Assembly: GCA_000990355.1 (NCBI GenBank)
Contig: LBSX01000002.1
Span: 6,000 to 69,999, forward strand
Length of the DNA stretch: 64,000 nucleotides
Source: Candidatus Magasanikbacteria bacterium GW2011_GWC2_37_14
Lineage (GTDB): Bacteria > Patescibacteriota > Patescibacteriia > Magasanikbacterales > UBA922
Reading direction: 5' to 3'
Position numbers and translations under genes: made by a program. The notes beneath the pieces are model-generated. The model was not told the origin of the DNA. It did no database searches and saw only the letters and a program-made list of their open reading frames with translations. Of the stretch, positions 21,930-63,345 are shown piece after piece (the first letter of the stretch is position 1; every line of letters starts with the position of its first letter).

Positions 21930-22649
21930 ATGGAAAATATTGGAAAACTTTATATTGTTGCCACCCCAATTGGCAATTTAGGCGACATTACTTTACGCGC
22001 TTTGGAAACATTAAAAAGTGTTGATTTTGTTTTGTGTGAAGATACCAGAGTTACCCAAAATTTACTAAATCATTTTGCTATTAAAACAAAAAGTATTTCC
22101 TACCACCAACATAGCGGTGTAGAAAAAATAAGTGAAATTATTAAATTATTAGAGACCGGTAAAAATTTAGCTCTTGTAACCGATGCTGGCACTCCCGGTA
22201 TCTCTGATCCTGGGAATTATTTGATAGCTGAAATTGTCAAAAAATGTCATGCTGAATTTATTTCAGCATCTCAGGGGATCCTGAAACCAGTTCAGGATGA
22301 CAGTATTGTACCAATCCCAGGTGCTTCGGCAGTCATTACTGCTTTATCAATTTCTGGTTTTTCAACAGATAAATTTTTATTTCTGGGTTTTCCGCCACAT
22401 AAAAAGGGTCGCAAGACGTTTTTTGAAGAATTAGCAAAAGTAGAACACACAGTTTGTTTTTATGAATCAAATCATCGAATTAAAAAATGTTTAGGAGAAT
22501 TAGCCGACGTTTTGGAAGAAGATAGACAAATGTGCGTGTGCCGTGAATTAACAAAAAAATTTGAAACTATTTATCGTGGAACAATAAAAGAAATATTAAC
22601 AAAAAATATTTCCGAAAAAGGCGAATTTGTAATAGTAATTAGTAATTAA
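21930..22649 (+). CDS. rsmI: 16S rRNA (cytidine1402-2'-O)-methyltransferase RsmI (tetrapyrrole methylase fold)
   Basis: LYIVATPIGNLGDITLRALETL...VLCEDTR. Carries an in-frame palindromic insertion at 22246-22301. Confidence 0.8.
   Translation: MENIGKLYIVATPIGNLGDITLRALETLKSVDFVLCEDTRVTQNLLNHFAIKTKSISYHQHSGVEKISEIIKLLETGKNLALVTDAGTPGISDPGNYLIAEIVKKCHAEFISASQGILKPVQDDSIVPIPGASAVITALSISGFSTDKFLFLGFPPHKKGRKTFFEELAKVEHTVCFYESNHRIKKCLGELADVLEEDRQMCVCRELTKKFETIYRGTIKEILTKNISEKGEFVIVISN
22246..22301. repeat. Family A double-hairpin element (GTCAT-hp1-hp2-ATGAC), short form, inside rsmI
   Basis: GTCATGCTGAATTTATTTCAGCATC ... GATCCTGAAACCAGTTCAGGATGAC. Translated in-frame as HAEFISASQGILKPVQDD. Confidence 0.65.
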
Positions 22650-22650
22650 T

Positions 22651-24135
22651 ATGAAAAATTTTTATTTAACAACTACACTTCCATATGTAAATGCCGAACC
22701 TCACATTGGTTTTGCTTTGGAAATTATTCAAGCTGATGTAATTGCTCGTTATCATAAGTTGCTAGGTGAAGAAGTAATTTTTAATACTGGTACTGATGAG
22801 CATGGTTTAAAAATATATCGTAAAGCAATAGAACTGGGTGTTGAACTACAAAAATATTGCGACGAATATGCTGCCAAGTTCGATGCTTTAAAGCAAGCCT
22901 TAAATTTAAGTTATACTCATTTTATTCGTACTACCGACCCACATCATCTCAAAGCTGCTCAGGAATTTTGGTTACGTTGTGAAAAAAATGGTGATATTTA
23001 TAAAAAGAATTATAAAGTAAAATATTGTGTAGGTTGTGAATTAGAAAAAACTGATTCCGAATTGGTAGACGATAAATGTCCAGTGCATCCAAATTTAAAT
23101 ATTGAATTAATTGAAGAAGAAAATTATTTTTTTAAATTTTCTAAATTTCAAAAGCCATTACTGGAACTTTATAAAAAGAATCCAAAATTTGTTATTCCAG
23201 CCAATCGTCAATTAGAAATAAAAAACTTTGTGGAAAAAGGTTTGGAAGATTTTAGTATTTCTAGATTAAAAGAAAAAATGCCTTGGGGTATTCCAGTGCC
23301 AAATGATGCTGATCATGTAATGTACGTTTGGTTTGATGCTCTTATAAACTATATATCTACATTAGGTTGGCCAGAAGATGAAAATAATTTTAATAATTTT
23401 TGGCCAGGAATTCAAGTAGCCGGAAAAGATAATTTACGCCAACAATCGGCAATGTGGCAAGCAATGCTGTTGTCTGCAGGGTTGCCAACGTCAAAACAGA
23501 TATTTATTCATGGTTTTATTACCTCCGAAGGACAAAAAATGAGTAAGAGTTTCGGTAATGTTGTTGAACCTTATAAAATTGTAGATAAATATGGCACTGA
23601 TGCCACGCGTTATTTCTTGCTTGGTGGTTTGCCTTCATATGAAGATGGTGATTTTTCTATTGAACGTTTTGAAGAATTTTATACTGCTCATCTTGTAAAT
23701 GGAGTAGGGAATTTATCAAGTCGAATTTTGACGATGATTGAAAAATATTCAGAATCAAAAATACCAGCTCAAATAGCAGATAACAAATATCAGTTAACAG
23801 AATTTTGGGCAAGTTATGATAAATTTATTAATGAATATAGATTTGAATCAATTGTTGAATTGGTGAATAGTCTTGTTGGCCAACTTGATGGAATGATTTC
23901 AACAGAAAAACCATGGGAAAAAGCGAAAAAAGGTGAAGATATTTCTGGTTTACTTTATCAACTAGCTGAAGGTTTGCGTCATATTGCTGTAGCACTTTTA
24001 CCAATTATTCCCGAAACTGCAGAAAAGATTTTAAAACAATTAGGCACAGAAGATACTTCGCGCGACTGGGGAAAATTAGAAGAAGGTGGTATAATAAAAA
24101 AAGGCGTGATACTTTTCCCAAGACTGGAAAAATAA
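22651..24135 (+). CDS. metG: Methionyl-tRNA synthetase (short form without C-terminal tRNA-binding domain)
   Basis: HIGH-type motif PYVNAEPHIGF, KMSKS, zinc knuckle CVGCE...CPVH. Confidence 0.9.
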   Translation: MKNFYLTTTLPYVNAEPHIGFALEIIQADVIARYHKLLGEEVIFNTGTDEHGLKIYRKAIELGVELQKYCDEYAAKFDALKQALNLSYTHFIRTTDPHHLKAAQEFWLRCEKNGDIYKKNYKVKYCVGCELEKTDSELVDDKCPVHPNLNIELIEEENYFFKFSKFQKPLLELYKKNPKFVIPANRQLEIKNFVEKGLEDFSISRLKEKMPWGIPVPNDADHVMYVWFDALINYISTLGWPEDENNFNNFWPGIQVAGKDNLRQQSAMWQAMLLSAGLPTSKQIFIHGFITSEGQKMSKSFGNVVEPYKIVDKYGTDATRYFLLGGLPSYEDGDFSIERFEEFYTAHLVNGVGNLSSRILTMIEKYSESKIPAQIADNKYQLTEFWASYDKFINEYRFESIVELVNSLVGQLDGMISTEKPWEKAKKGEDISGLLYQLAEGLRHIAVALLPIIPETAEKILKQLGTEDTSRDWGKLEEGGIIKKGVILFPRLEK

Positions 24136-24240
24136 TTTTCATTTTACAATTTACAATTTTCAATAAATTATCAATTTTCAATTACCAATTTGGAAATTGT
24201 TTCATTGAAAATTTATTGTAAATTGATTATTGATAATTGT
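24136..24240. repeat. AT-rich intergenic repeat module (TTTACAATT / TTTTCAATAAATT units plus the 22-mer TTGAAAATTTATTGTAAATTGA)
   Basis: The 22-bp exact match and the flanking motifs recur at 31040-31172. Confidence 0.55.
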
Positions 24241-24267
24241 AAATTTTATTTTTTAATTTTTTATGTT

Positions 24268-24810
24268 ATGAGTTTATTCGACATAATATTATTAATCATC
24301 ATTGGTGGTTTTACCATGTTTGGTTTTTGGTTTGGTTTGATTCACACTCTTGGTTCACTCTTGGGTACAGTGTTTGGGGCTTATTTGGCTGCCAGATTTT
24401 ATGAACCAATGGCTGGGTGGCTGATGAATATTACCGGTTGGGGTGGTAATATTTCCAAAGTTTTAATGTTTATTATCGCCTTTATAATTATCAACCGTTT
24501 GGTTGGTTTTGCTTTTTGGATTGTGGAAAAAATTACCAATGTTATTACTTATCTACCATTTATTCAAGGAATTAATAGACTTCTTGGCATGATTTTGGGT
24601 TTGGCCGAAGGTTTAATTACTTTGGGTTTAATTTTTTATTTTATTGAACGTTTTCCTCTTTCCGATACTTTTATGCAATGGATGGCTAATTCGGTAGTAG
24701 TACCATACACACTCTCTATTGCCGCTGTTTTAATTCCACTACTCCCTGAAGCCTTAAAAATGCTAAAATCTACAGTGGATTATGTAGAGCATACGCTGAT
24801 TAAATTGTAA
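24268..24810 (+). CDS. CvpA-family membrane protein
   Basis: Four TM helices. N-terminal LFDIILLIIIGGFTMFGFWFGL is typical of CvpA. Start placed at the internal Met after the repeat. Confidence 0.6.
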   Translation: MSLFDIILLIIIGGFTMFGFWFGLIHTLGSLLGTVFGAYLAARFYEPMAGWLMNITGWGGNISKVLMFIIAFIIINRLVGFAFWIVEKITNVITYLPFIQGINRLLGMILGLAEGLITLGLIFYFIERFPLSDTFMQWMANSVVVPYTLSIAAVLIPLLPEALKMLKSTVDYVEHTLIKL

Positions 24811-24811
24811 A

Positions 24812-24840
24812 ACAAAGCTCCGTTCGCGGAGCTTTTAAAA
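24812..24840 (+). terminator. Rho-independent terminator
   Basis: AAAGCTCCG/CGGAGCTTT hairpin followed by a T-run. Confidence 0.6.
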
Positions 24841-62888: not shown

Positions 62889-62898
62889 AATGGATAAA

Positions 62899-63207
62899 TT
62901 ATTTATTACTTTTTTCTGATTTCAAAATATAAATAGACACAACCACAATCACAATCGTAATAATCACCGCATAAATAAATTTGGCCAAAAGTCCCCCACC
63001 AGAAGCAAGGGGAAAATATCTTTCAATTAATCCTTTTATAGCTTCATTCCAGGCCAAACCAGCCACTAACCCAAATCCAGCCAAAACATAAGTACCAATT
63101 TTTTGTTTAACTTCTGTCCCAACTTTTTTTGTTTCTTTTTTGAAATTGTCTAGCATACGTTCAATGATTAATATATTAATATTAGCAAATTTGACAAAAA
63201 AAATCAA
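62899..63207 (-). CDS. Small membrane protein (hypothetical)
   Basis: Two TM helices. The true start is possibly the internal Met at 63156. Confidence 0.4.
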   Translation of the reverse strand: MIFFVKFANINILIIERMLDNFKKETKKVGTEVKQKIGTYVLAGFGLVAGLAWNEAIKGLIERYFPLASGGGLLAKFIYAVIITIVIVVVSIYILKSEKSNK

Positions 63208-63218
63208 GCTGGTATAAT
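63191..63218 (+). promoter_or_regulatory. Sigma70-like promoter TTGACA-16-TATAAT for clpB
   Basis: Consensus hexamers at 63191-63196 and 63213-63218. Confidence 0.55.
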
Positions 63219-63219
63219 A

Positions 63220-63246
63220 TTAGCACTCAAAGGTAGTGAGTGATAA
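63220..63246 (+). promoter_or_regulatory. CIRCE operator (TTAGCACTC-N9-GAGTGATAA), HrcA binding site
   Basis: Matches TTAGCACTC-N9-GAGTGCTAA with one mismatch. Overlaps the +1 region of the promoter. Confidence 0.65.
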
Positions 63247-63252
63247 CTCACT

Positions 63253-63345
63253 GTCATGCTGAACTTGTTTCAGCATCTATCCTTGTAAACACATTTCTAA
63301 AAAATTATAACTTTATGAAAGATCCTGAAATAAATTCAGGATGAC
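63253..63345. repeat. Family A element, long form (hp1, 43-bp AT-rich spacer, hp2) in the clpB 5' leader
   Basis: GTCATGCTGAACTTGTTTCAGCATC ... GATCCTGAAATAAATTCAGGATGAC. The spacer carries TTGTAA-17-TATAAC. Confidence 0.7.

Follow-up and report, generated by a model that had tools for sequence, protein, structure and literature searches.

Repeat-bearing loci

The window is the whole stretch of 64,000 nucleotides that was analysed (GC 32.7%); its source is Candidatus Magasanikbacteria GW2011_GWC2_37_14 (CPR/Patescibacteria). CPR bacteria have a dependent lifestyle. The window contains five inverted pairs of a short hairpin unit and a sixth, single unit at 26466-26500. Each unit consists of a YGTC tag, a hairpin with a stem that begins with AT, and a C immediately past the stem. 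Three of the pairs, as well as the single unit, lie in frame within coding sequence and are translated (RsmI, TatD, an alpha/beta hydrolase, a 617-aa ORF). Two pairs occupy the intergenic gaps 5' of atpG and clpB. The features are as follows.

21930..22649, + strand: host gene rsmI (16S rRNA C1402 2'-O-methyltransferase; TIGR00096, E = 2.3e-68)
22245..22302, + strand: inverted pair of CTGAA-type (CGTC-2-like) units inside rsmI, found by patterns and covariance model; left unit TGTC-ATGCTGAA-TTTAT-TTCAGCAT-C, right unit G-ATCCTGAA-ACCAG-TTCAGGAT-GACA
26466..26500, + strand: single ATTGCGAGG-subfamily unit (TGTCATTGCGAGGA...AGCAATCCC), found by covariance model
28641..29771, + strand: host gene tatD (TatD/YcfH-type hydrolase; TIGR00010)
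29117..29205, + strand: inverted pair of ATTGCGAGG-subfamily units inside tatD, recovered by covariance model
34082..34176, + strand: long-form CTGAA-type pair 5' of atpG, spacer about 43 nt (17% GC)
52185..52955, + strand: host gene for an alpha/beta hydrolase (BioH-like)
52380..52443, + strand: inverted pair of CGTC-1/NTS-type units inside the hydrolase gene, found by structural definition; left unit CGTC-ATTCCCGC-GAAG-GCGGGAAT-C, right unit G-ATCCCCGT-TTTC-ACGGGGAT-GACG
63252..63346, + strand: long-form CTGAA-type pair in the clpB leader, AT-rich spacer of about 43 nt

The five pairs lie where an earlier, sequence-only reading had placed them; that reading overlooked the single unit. Its inverted ends are real, but since the stems extend to 8 bp (ATGCTGAA/TTCAGCAT), the conserved tag is to be read as YGTC and not as GTCAT. 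The units also divide into subfamilies. The CTGAA type (8-bp stem, 5-nt loop) is present in rsmI and 5' of atpG and clpB. The NTS/dRS3/RPE-6 type (8-bp stem, 4-nt loop) is present in the hydrolase gene. The tatD copy belongs, with the single unit in ORF 24843-26696, to another subfamily, the ATTGCGAGG type, which has a 5-bp basal stem (ATTGC/GCAAT).

Detection and folding

The pattern GTCATGCTGAA-N-TTCAGCAT occurs three times in the window versus 0.00 expected (100 dinucleotide shuffles), and ATCCTGAA-N-TTCAGGATGAC likewise occurs three times versus 0.00 expected. A structural definition (YGTC, a perfect 8-bp stem with AT as its first bases and a loop of 4-5 nt) finds 8 half-sites versus 0.085 expected, with a maximum of 2 in 200 shuffles. 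A covariance model trained on copies from other genomes, run unfiltered across the whole window, returns exactly the ten paired half-sites and one single unit (26464-26500), followed by noise. Folding, which had been proposed as a check at the RNA level and was run here on single-stranded DNA, places all five pairs far ahead of shuffled sequences (z = -3.6 to -5.0). The elements are short and multicopy, with terminal inverted repeats of about 25 nt. They are GC-rich, as had been stated, in the short forms (43-56%) but not in the long forms, which have only 30% GC overall because their spacers have 17-20%. No Rfam family matches the repeats, and no consistent direct repeats flank the five pairs. 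Four further pairs are located in intergenic gaps of the same contig outside the window.

Copies within genes

The rsmI insert (22245-22301, 57 nt) encodes CHAEFISASQGILKPVQDD, and only one of its six reading frames, that of the host, is open. Its halves score 39.3 and 42.6 bits in the covariance model, and its single-stranded DNA fold has an energy of -13.7 kcal/mol (z = -4.8). The segment is missing in the solved homologues 3kwp and 5hw4 and in short-loop CPR orthologues. The tatD insert (29118-29204, 87 nt) encodes VIARRSTADEAIPSQNGIATPRSGEVRND, folds at -23.3 kcal/mol (z = -5.0) and scores 14.1 and 13.6 bits. It splits the TIGR00010 match into two stretches, one on either side. In the AlphaFold model of TatD, the insert is coil (pLDDT 47-64) between helix 151-164 and strand 191-194, with a core pLDDT above 90. 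This segment is missing in the solved homologues 6l25, 2gzx and 1yix and at two related loci (L123, L125), and is found at another (L121). The single unit reads CHCEDEGQSNP in the frame of its ORF and scores 15.5 bits (E = 0.099); read side by side, the single unit and the left half of the tatD pair both contain TGTCATTGCGAGGA and AGCAATCCC.

The hydrolase insert (52380-52442, 63 nt) encodes RHSREGGNLKLVKDPRFHGDD and folds at -18.0 kcal/mol (z = -4.3). Its left unit agrees with 26 of the 28 positions of the published NTS consensus, and its right unit fits the published SRM search pattern. That pattern matches one of the ten paired half-sites; the CTGAA type cannot fit it. The segment is missing in PDB homologues and short-loop orthologues. 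The host proteins are 100% identical to P0121 (RsmI), P0001 (TatD) and P0241 (hydrolase).

The corrected insert lengths of 57, 87 and 63 nt are all multiples of three, and the intragenic copies do keep the host frame open. The proposed alignment to orthologues identifies the segments as insertions, since they are missing in solved homologues and in many close Patescibacteria orthologues. A repeat-bearing surface loop occurs in about one quarter to two fifths of the Patescibacteria orthologues of RsmI, TatD and the hydrolase that were measured. Across these orthologues the loops hold differing repeat subfamilies and are otherwise short, an observation beyond the published descriptions of the family. 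No exact empty site was recovered at the nucleotide level; the nearest insert-free orthologues have diverged loops.

Long forms in intergenic gaps

The long forms have the spacers that had been described. The atpG copy (repeat family D1; 41.7 and 44.2 bits) takes up the intergenic space from the atpA stop at 34080 to the atpG start at 34183, a start deduced from the NCBIfam alignment, and ends 7 nt short of the ATG. Among relatives, this site holds a different subfamily at two loci (L127, L128) and no repeat at a third (L126). The clpB copy (45.0 and 40.1 bits) has a CIRCE operator (63220-63246) 5' of it and the clpB ATG (63353) 3' of it, and likewise stops 7 nt short of that ATG. Over 111 nt, it and the atpG copy are 73% identical. 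ClpB is assigned from Pfam hits to the same gene at L209.

Copies in other genomes and the GIY-YIG genes

At least 120 loci in more than 100 other genomes match in the pattern scan, which, with the pairs elsewhere on the contig, bears out the expectation of further copies. Among the matches listed, the loci span Bacteroidota, Sphingomonadales, Treponema, several CPR groups, Gastranaerophilales, Nitrospirota, Elusimicrobiota and Rickettsia. The tag is CGTC or TGTC in 92% of these listed units, and in 70 of 153 a partner hairpin in inverted orientation ends at GAC within 220 nt (0 in shuffled controls). The partner hairpins among them have 19 different stems, each perfectly complementary. In alignment A4, the GTC and the post-stem C are invariant or at least 90% conserved; these positions are critical for cutting and binding (Chenal et al. 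2025). The CTGAA-type unit is nearly unchanged across more than ten phyla, which is not part of the earlier descriptions.

Among the matches listed, the protein clusters common to several loci are unrelated and housekeeping-type, except for a small GIY-YIG cluster at three loci. Two loci from the pattern scan (L093, L012) contain single-domain GIY-YIG ORFs (Pfam PF01541) with unit ends on both sides. A syntenic Magasanikbacteria relative (L126) has a 114-aa GIY-YIG gene (6459-6803) with degenerate ends between rrf2 and iscS; in the window the rrf2 and iscS ORFs overlap, and the site is therefore empty there. At L134, the GIY-YIG gene (914-1207) has the CTGAA-type ends of the window on both sides. 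This flanking of a GIY-YIG gene in relatives (L134, L126) also goes beyond the published accounts. Relatives of the L134 protein have flanking inverted repeats in 48 of 76 cases versus 0 in controls. PF01541 is the sole Pfam match of the GIY-YIG proteins, and no NCBIfam model scores above its cut-off. No ssn gene is present in the approximately 84 kb of the host genome examined.

The sequence TGTCATGCTGAATTTATTTCAGCATC is a candidate single-stranded target for the Magasanikbacteria GIY-YIG proteins (L126, L134).

Relationship to known families

The window elements are copies of a known, widespread family and are not lineage-specific. The family has been described as CGTC-tagged REPs (Di Nocera, De Gregorio and Rocco 2013, BMC Genomics 14:522; PMC3733652) and as NTS/SRM (Ssn-related motifs), with the protein partner Ssn (Chenal et al. 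2025, Nat Commun 16:2388). The available part of the 2013 paper describes a tag, an AT-first stem of 8-9 bp, a loop of 4-5 nt and head-to-head pairs. The window copies share the CGTC/TGTC tag, the 8-bp AT-first stem, the loop length (4 nt in the hydrolase copy, 5 nt in the CTGAA copies), the short tail, the mostly head-to-head arrangement, with the unlike-unit pairs typical of CGTC-2, and intragenic pairs coding for 20-30 amino acids. They differ in host, as the phyla named in that part do not include CPR and alpha-Proteobacteria predominate, and in tail (CT(C/T) versus CCA). Neither the tatD copy nor the single unit, both of the ATTGCGAGG type, fits any of the four family descriptions given there. 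The hydrolase-copy type probably corresponds to CGTC-1. The CTGAA type appears equivalent to CGTC-2, judging by description and peptide: RHSELVSGS, listed for an intragenic CGTC-2 repeat, back-translates to a CTGAA-type unit.

With NTS/SRM and SsnA, the window shares the near-consensus hydrolase unit and the conserved GTC tag and post-stem C, and the small GIY-YIG genes between units in relatives have the SRM-ssn-SRM layout. It differs in its CTGAA type, which lies outside the degenerate SRM pattern, in an intragenic position for four of six loci versus 2% in N. meningitidis, and in the ssn gene, which was not found in the stretch examined. The word Patescibacteria does not occur in the main text of Chenal et al. 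2025. The ATTCCC-N8-GGGAAT core of the hydrolase copy is also that of Neisseria dRS3/NIME, which are clustered and intergenic in Neisseria, whereas the window has isolated pairs, often intragenic.

Rickettsia RPE-4 and RPE-6 belong to the same family. Di Nocera et al. (PMC3733652) equate CGTC-1 with Neisseria dRS3 and RPE-6, and CGTC-4 with RPE-4; the earlier comparison with Rickettsia palindromic elements is thus right and points to more than a resemblance. As with RPE-4 and RPE-6 (Ogata et al.), the window repeats are palindromic, lie in frame in housekeeping genes and are translated. The other frames of the hydrolase copy read VIPAKAGI and SFPRRRES, a close match to the R. conorii intragenic CGTC-1 peptides VIPAKAGI and SFPRKRES. 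Both hosts have reduced, AT-rich genomes; they differ in lineage and in the CTGAA type that dominates the window. The classic RPE-1 is distinct from these and longer, at about 100-150 bp.

Alternative explanations

That the extra peptides are ancestral to the host proteins, with DNA similarity by chance, accounts for the open frames and nothing further. It is refuted by their absence from solved homologues and many close orthologues, by the recurrence of a 25-nt DNA unit in unrelated genes, intergenic DNA and other phyla, and by the chance expectation of 0.00 for the exact patterns. Ordinary MITEs, deletion derivatives of DDE-transposase IS that move by cut-and-paste with target-site duplications, would have similar terminal inverted repeats, short length and many copies. 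This origin is hardly credible for pairs that have no consistent flanking direct repeats, and the hairpin ends with compensatory stem variation imply recognition of single-stranded DNA. Classical REP/BIME elements moved by RAYT (an IS200/IS605-like Y1 transposase) share the short tag, the hairpin, the inverted pairs with spacer (REPIN-like) and the tie of hairpin doublets to one ssDNA-acting enzyme. They are a very improbable source, as the tag is YGTC and not GTAG, and the gene enclosed by the ends is GIY-YIG rather than a Y1 transposase. Di Nocera et al. also report that no transposase dedicated to the CGTC repeats was found. GTAG REPs are species-specific, whereas the window unit is conserved across phyla. 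The listed clusters shared near the loci, housekeeping-type apart from GIY-YIG, speak against both MITE and RAYT origins.

It is less probable, though by no means negligible and compatible with the explanation below, that the repeats persist chiefly because they serve the host and not as selfish DNA. They could be DNA marks for Ssn that govern the fate of single-stranded DNA when it enters the cell or becomes exposed, a role suggested for NTS in Neisseria, or mRNA hairpins that affect the stability or translation of the downstream gene. SsnA and NTS have a documented role in modulating Neisseria transformation (Chenal et al. 2025), and Di Nocera et al. argue for transcription of many REPs. A start codon follows 5-11 nt after the end of both long forms and of the corresponding copies in relatives, and the pairs outside the window are intergenic. 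Against a host function stand the patchy presence among close orthologues, the occupation of the same loop by different subfamilies, the lack of a plausible regulatory position for coding-loop copies, the lack of an Rfam match and the inactivity of SsnA on RNA (Chenal et al. 2025).

Proposed explanation

The insertions, the further copies and the link to RPEs support the view, already put forward in the sequence-only reading, of a selfish palindromic element colonising coding sequence in frame. The elements are very probably head-to-head pairs (tags outward) of CGTC-tagged REPs, that is, SRM of the small GIY-YIG single-strand-specific nuclease Ssn. For the Neisseria and Wolbachia enzymes, the literature shows that the unit folds when DNA is single-stranded and that Ssn binds it in just one orientation, cleaving 5' of the tag at a distance of a few nucleotides. 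An inverted pair would present one cleavable unit per strand, and paired cuts would land just beyond both outer ends, in keeping with the abrupt limits of the pairs at their tags. We infer that Ssn is the mobiliser; the pairs would be non-autonomous partners of SRM-ssn-SRM elements and may spread via a single-strand or repair-dependent copying step. As the genome is gene-dense, many insertions would fall in genes. The surviving intragenic copies would be those with a length that is a multiple of three and an open host frame in a tolerant surface loop, and so would be translated as disordered loop extensions, parallel to the Rickettsia RPEs.

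Anatomy and number of the repeat units

The window contains five pairs of a short repeat unit. The sequence read at each site bears out the five copies that the sequence-only reading had placed there. Short forms lie within rsmI, tatD and an alpha/beta hydrolase gene, and long forms, with a spacer of ~43 nt, lie before atpG and clpB. The pairs fall into three subfamilies: the CTGAA type (rsmI, atpG and clpB copies), the NTS/CGTC-1 type (hydrolase copy) and the ATTGCGAGG type (tatD copy and one single unit). NTS is the Neisseria form of the Ssn-related motif (SRM), and Ssn is a small GIY-YIG single-strand-specific DNA nuclease.

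Each unit opens with a TGTC or CGTC tag. A perfect 8-bp stem beginning with AT (ATGCTGAA, ATCCTGAA, ATTCCCGC, ATCCCCGT) comes next and encloses a loop of 4-5 nt, with a C immediately following the stem. In the right-hand member of each pair this layout is reverse-complemented. The tags of all five pairs face outward. Every one of the 10 paired half-sites, like the single unit, starts with TGTC or CGTC. Eight of the 11 units have the perfect 8-bp stem from AT with a loop of 4 or 5 nt, and in each of these eight canonical units the GTC of the tag and the C adjoining the stem are both present. A basal stem of just 5 bp (ATTGC/GCAAT) and a longer interior characterise the three ATTGCGAGG-type units. 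The stem-to-stem gap ranges from ~8 nt in the rsmI copy to ~45 nt in the long forms.

Two exact hairpin-plus-tag patterns occur three times each in the window, compared with 0.00 expected from 100 dinucleotide-preserving shuffles. Half-sites with the tag and 8-bp stem layout occur eight times (0.085 expected from shuffles). Treated as single-stranded DNA, all five pairs fold far better than their shuffles, with z-scores of -3.6 to -5.0. A covariance model built from units of other genomes and run unfiltered over the whole window picks out all five pairs (ten half-sites) plus one further unit; the remaining matches are noise. Further copies were also expected beyond the window, and ~20 kb of the same contig outside both window ends contains four more pairs, each between neighbouring genes. 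The additional loci are as follows.

26464-26500: single unit TGTCATTGCGAGGA...AGCAATCCC, of the subfamily to which the tatD copy belongs, within ORF 24843-26696 and in its frame
Outside the window, fmt/def gap: pair
Outside the window, gap between def and the next gene: pair
Outside the window, Memo/peptidase S11 gap: pair
Outside the window, ftsX/ftsE gap: pair

The total in ~84 kb of this genome is nine pairs and one single unit, which gives a load of approximately one locus per 8-9 kb. The GC content of the window is 32.7%. The earlier description of the element as GC-rich holds for the short forms (43-56% GC) and fails for the two long forms (30%), because their spacers are 17-20% GC.

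On the minus strand at 3250-3300, within glycosyltransferase ORF 2208-3380, the sequence GTATTGCGAGGCCACGAAGTGCTAGTAATTGCCCC looks like a degraded ATTGCGAGG-type unit that lacks the GTC tag and may be a remnant or a chance match. A second, AT-rich repeat family with the motif AATTGTAAATTGA is present at two intergenic sites, 24182-24245 and 31118-31181, which are 80% identical. This motif also covers the tatD stop region in L121, a contig of the closest relative, and is unrelated to the hairpin family. Across positions 1-64000, the sign of the GC skew tracks gene orientation, being negative at minus-strand genes (~4-10 kb and 58-63 kb) and positive between them.

Insertions in rsmI, tatD and the hydrolase gene

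The gene names assigned from sequence (rsmI, tatD, hydrolase and the others) are correct. At the protein level, TatD, RsmI and the hydrolase show 100% identity to entries of Candidatus Magasanikbacteria bacterium GW2011_GWC2_37_14, which belongs to the candidate phyla radiation (CPR); the contig measures ~92 kb. With the right boundaries, the inserts are 57 nt (rsmI), 87 nt (tatD) and 63 nt (hydrolase) long. Five of the six frames of the rsmI copy are interrupted by stop codons, and the sole open frame is that of the host gene. Comparison with solved structures shows where the extra residues lie. In TatD, ~25-29 of them separate the GVVHCY strand from the helix that comes after the IHVR strand; in RsmI they fall between the DPG and VPLPG motifs, and in the hydrolase immediately before the nucleophile elbow GHSxGG. 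Loop lengths were compared with those of Patescibacteria orthologues, 120 per protein, and those that could be measured were counted.

Loop lengths in the window proteins and in Patescibacteria orthologues
TatD: window 37 aa; short class 10-13 aa; 108 of 120 measured; 37 at 30 aa or more
RsmI: window 31 aa; short class 12-17 aa; 78 of 120 measured; ~30 at 26 aa or more (the count leaves out 42 sequences that the measuring pattern did not fit)
Hydrolase: window 35 aa; short class 17-21 aa; 115 of 120 measured; 24 at 28 aa or more

The window RsmI exceeds the shortest CPR RsmI loop (12 aa) by exactly 19 codons. The extra peptide segments are absent from the solved homologues and from the short-loop Patescibacteria orthologues, and the proposal that they are insertions is thereby upheld. 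In the AlphaFold model of TatD, the core has pLDDT values above 90. The insert (residues 161-190), a coil with pLDDT values of 47-64, lies in the loop that joins helix 151-164 to strand 191-194. This is presumably the side of the TIM barrel away from the catalytic face. Length, frame and this model suggest that the in-frame inserts are translated. Among TatD and RsmI genes that lack the insert, the most similar (~75-82% identity) have loops too diverged to fix the insert boundaries to the nucleotide.

The tatD gene has a further alteration at its 3' end (window 29540-29771). Its stop codon is lost through a 14-nt deletion relative to L121, which produces a hydrophobic C-terminal extension of ~75 aa. 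The extension overruns the conserved atp-operon promoter (TTGACC...TAAAAT) into the ATPase_gene1 ORF (29663-29920) and could be either a real read-through or an assembly error.

The long orthologue loops contain peptides typical of several subfamilies (VIARS...ATKQS...RND, VIPAQAGIQ...RFRGND, CHPERSEGS...SPQND and VILSEA...AQDD). At the nucleotide level, occupancy of the same places differs in L126, L127 and L128, three loci from relatives. In rsmI, L126 and L128 contain a pair of another subfamily (CGTCATATTGAGCGAAGCCCG...CTCAGGATGAC) five codons upstream of the insertion point in the window, and L127 is empty. In the atpA-atpG gap, L127 and L128 contain a pair of yet another subfamily (TCATTCCGA...GAGGAATC / GATTCCTCGC...TCGGAATGA) that ends 5 nt before the ATG. 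L126 has no pair in this gap and instead has a CTGAA-type pair before atpB. Such varied occupancy looks like the outcome of separate insertions that tolerance has filtered, rather than of a single ancestral insertion. L128 also contains a 23S_rRNA_IVP-family gene (PF05635; 10761-11123) between rsmI and metG, which is absent from the window.

Long forms upstream of atpG and clpB

Both long forms end in AGGATGAC, exactly 7 nt before the ATG of the downstream gene (atpG start 34183, clpB start 63353). An ATG inside the element was considered as the atpG start and rejected, since NCBIfam alignment places the real start at 34183. The longest-ORF version of AtpG has no exact database match because that ORF begins at the ATG within the element.

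The repeat pair was also considered as the source of a Shine-Dalgarno site. This was rejected, as the other starts of this genome are essentially without such motifs: among 38 starts, 36 of them without a repeat pair, the sole other match to GGAG, GAGG or AGGA in the 25 nt upstream is a GGAG at -15 before 24843. The gene leaders in the window are simply AT-rich, and translation initiation in this genome seems to be independent of Shine-Dalgarno sites.

The inner flanks shared by the long forms, ATCTTTC and GAAAGAT, are also present at the ends that bracket ssn, the Ssn gene, in three loci from other genomes (L126, L129 and L130). The two flanks are mutually inverted and are therefore simply the tails of units. 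They speak neither for nor against the long forms being ssn elements minus the ORF.

The clpB leader contains a near-perfect CIRCE operator, TTAGCACTC-N9-GAGTGATAA, at 63220-63246, directly 3' of a TATAAT box (63213-63218). The operator suggests HrcA control of clpB. The repeat pair is located between the operator and the start codon.

Relationship to described repeat families

The elements belong to a described superfamily, CGTC REP = SRM/NTS = dRS3 = RPE-4/RPE-6. According to Di Nocera et al. (2013; PMC3733652), CGTC-tagged REPs have a CGTC or TGTC tag, AT-first stems of 8-9 bp, loops of 4-5 nt and short tails, and most are paired head to head across spacers of roughly 20-100 bp. The window units agree in tag, in stem and loop (8 of 11 units), in head-to-head pairing and in repetition, and their shortest gaps fall below the usual spacer range. 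The same authors equate CGTC-1 with Neisseria dRS3 and Rickettsia conorii RPE-6, equate CGTC-4 with RPE-4, describe intragenic pairs as encoding 20-30 residues and report no dedicated transposase. For an intragenic CGTC-2 repeat, their supplementary table gives the peptide RHSELVSGS. This peptide back-translates to CGTCATTCTGAACTTGTTTCAGGATC, which identifies the CTGAA type as CGTC-2. The table entries for R. conorii CGTC-1 include VIPAKAGI and SFPRKRES, and other frames of the hydrolase copy encode the counterparts VIPAKAGI and SFPRRRES.

Chenal et al. (2025; PMC11893778) redefined dRS3 as the oriented NTS, CGTCATTCCCGCGMAVGCGGGAATCYRG, and generalised it to Ssn-related motifs. In that study, the 94-aa GIY-YIG protein SsnA binds the motif solely when it is single-stranded and in one orientation, and cleavage falls a few nucleotides upstream. 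Mutagenesis showed that the three nucleotides preceding the palindrome are important for cutting and the C following it for binding, and such motifs are near 71% of ssnA homologues. The window units share the conserved GTC and the trailing C. The degenerate published SRM pattern, HGTCWYN(0-2)YYVSBRHN(0-5)WNVSBRGN(0-2)RNCYNB, matches just one window half-site (52416-52443; shuffle mean 0.03). Against the narrower NTS consensus, the left unit of the hydrolase copy agrees at 26 of 28 positions. CTGAA stems are unable to satisfy the YYVS positions, and the published pattern therefore misses a whole widespread subfamily.

The resemblance to Rickettsia palindromic elements, proposed earlier as a selfish element colonising coding sequence, is supported: the superfamily includes RPE-4 and RPE-6, and the window copies share with RPEs a palindromic repeat that is in frame in coding genes, absent from orthologues and probably translated. 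Other families fit less well. GTAG REPs have a GTAG tag and a Y1 (RAYT) transposase, whereas the window tag is YGTC and the neighbour protein clusters shared near the 120 loci listed from other genomes are unrelated families of housekeeping type or GIY-YIG. Classical MITEs have inverted ends, as the window pairs do, but a check for target-site duplications gave no consistent direct repeats at the flanks of the five pairs. A known Rfam family such as Pedo-repair was rejected, with no hit at the gathering threshold; a sub-threshold search of the window and four element-bearing loci returned chance hits with E-values up to 1. A full-text literature search for the literal DNA strings of the repeats returned just unrelated primer sequences.

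Distribution in other genomes

A scan with the pattern GTCATSCTGAA-N(3-12)-TTCAGSATC, one genome per species, matches at least 120 loci. The hosts among the matches listed include Pedobacter and other Bacteroidota, Sphingomonadales, Treponema, Gracilibacteria, Saccharibacteria, Nomurabacteria, Falkowbacteria, Peribacteria, Gastranaerophilales, Nitrospirota, Elusimicrobiota, a Rickettsia endosymbiont (L079) and others. Among these listed matches, 92% of units carry a CGTC or TGTC tag, and an inverted partner hairpin abutting GAC is present within 220 nt for 70 of 153 units, compared with none of the shuffled controls. The median partner spacer of the 70 paired units is 35.5 nt, and the partner hairpins, again among the matches listed, use 19 different perfectly complementary stems. 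Taken with the partner counts, this diversity indicates that the hairpin, beyond its sequence, is under selection.

When 33 units of other genomes are aligned across phyla, positions G4, T5 and C6 do not vary, and conservation at C28 is at least 90%. The rows of the unit alignment (A4) were picked for perfect stems, which makes pairing statistics from it circular; the count of partner arms against shuffled controls was used instead. Clustering of neighbouring genes at the 120 loci listed, in search of an enzyme, gave just one small GIY-YIG cluster (3 loci), the rest being unrelated families of housekeeping type.

Association with GIY-YIG genes

The link to GIY-YIG is clear from the flanks of the GIY-YIG genes themselves, not from neighbour clustering. 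Small GIY-YIG ORFs bracketed by unit ends are present in L093 and L012, two loci from other genomes, and were found independently of Chenal et al. The GIY-YIG proteins of L126, L093, L095 and L012 are candidate members of the Ssn family (CDD cd10448, single-domain GIY-YIG proteins of ~90-115 aa): they are single-domain proteins of 96-114 aa with PF01541 as the sole match above cut-off, and NCBIfam models give no match above cut-off. No GIY-YIG (ssn) gene is present in the window or in the 20 kb of flanking sequence (~84 kb of this genome in all). The GIY-YIG genes of L126 and L134 are as follows.

L126, 6459-6803: GIY-YIG gene, 114 aa, degenerate ends, between rrf2 and iscS
L134, 914-1207: GIY-YIG gene bracketed by TGTCATCCTGAACTTGTTTCAGGATC and its inverse, the CTGAA type of the window

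Three syntenic relatives, L126 among them, each have rsmI-metG-cvpA-tatD and the atp operon. The rrf2 and iscS ORFs of the window overlap (19220-19630 and 19611-20927), and the window is therefore an empty site for the gene-bearing element of L126. Both tags of the L126 element (6405-6875, opposite window 19611-19630) are changed symmetrically from GTCAT to TTAAT (TTAATCTCGAG...CGAGATTAA), a change that could reflect decay or a distinct tag variant. Sufficient flanking sequence was available for 76 metagenomic relatives of the L126 protein. Of these, 48 carry inverted repeats between their two flanks (0 in shuffled controls), and in 16 the strict tag-plus-hairpin is found on each side.

The L134 contig is low in GC and comes from the metagenome that also yielded L121. 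Upstream of its GIY-YIG gene (795-905), a CTGAA-type pair is nested within a ATTGCGAGG-type unit (TGTCATTGCGAGGAGTTCAAAT[pair]GTGAAGCGAGTTCAATTTGACA), an arrangement in which one subfamily has inserted into another.

Origin and significance of the in-frame pairs

Others have shown that Ssn cuts single-stranded DNA in a strand-specific manner, immediately 5' of the tag (PMC11893778). For the L134 and L126 GIY-YIG proteins, single-stranded DNA carrying TGTCATGCTGAATTTATTTCAGCATC is a predicted substrate. An inverted pair would receive two Ssn cuts, just outside both of its ends, and the pairs would spread as non-autonomous partners of SRM-ssn-SRM elements. In this gene-dense genome, the only survivors would be copies that are in frame and located in loops. 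A host role is possible, either in the control of incoming single-stranded DNA or through effects on mRNA, and would be compatible with spread of the pairs as partners of ssn-bearing elements.

The family is already described, and no new kind of system is revealed. What is new is the CPR host lineage, the high in-frame share, the way in which different subfamilies have colonised the same loops repeatedly, and the gap in the published search pattern. Tentatively, and with confidence a little short of even, the Patescibacteria are put forward as a second, unreported Rickettsia-like case. Several Ssn-related subfamilies would have repeatedly and independently colonised the same permissive RsmI, TatD and BioH-like loops, giving length-polymorphic translated extensions in approximately one quarter to two fifths of measured orthologues. 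The CTGAA type, near-identical in more than 10 phyla, would be a separate Ssn specificity class distributed by horizontal transfer.

With these results, repeats that lengthen and diversify the proteins of a CPR genome gain a name and a likely protein partner. The known hosts of in-frame CGTC-REP/SRM insertion, until now Rickettsia and a few Proteobacteria, come to include the candidate phyla radiation. For annotators, SRM-derived peptides such as VIAR...RND, VIPAQAGIQ, CHPERSEGS and xILKQVQDD are to be expected in Patescibacteria proteins and should not be taken for domains. Orthologous loops with different occupants are a natural comparative data set for how such repeats, including RPEs, insert and why they are in frame. 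If the proposed reading is true, the many insertions that arose independently at orthologous positions could help to resolve how CGTC REPs and RPEs insert.
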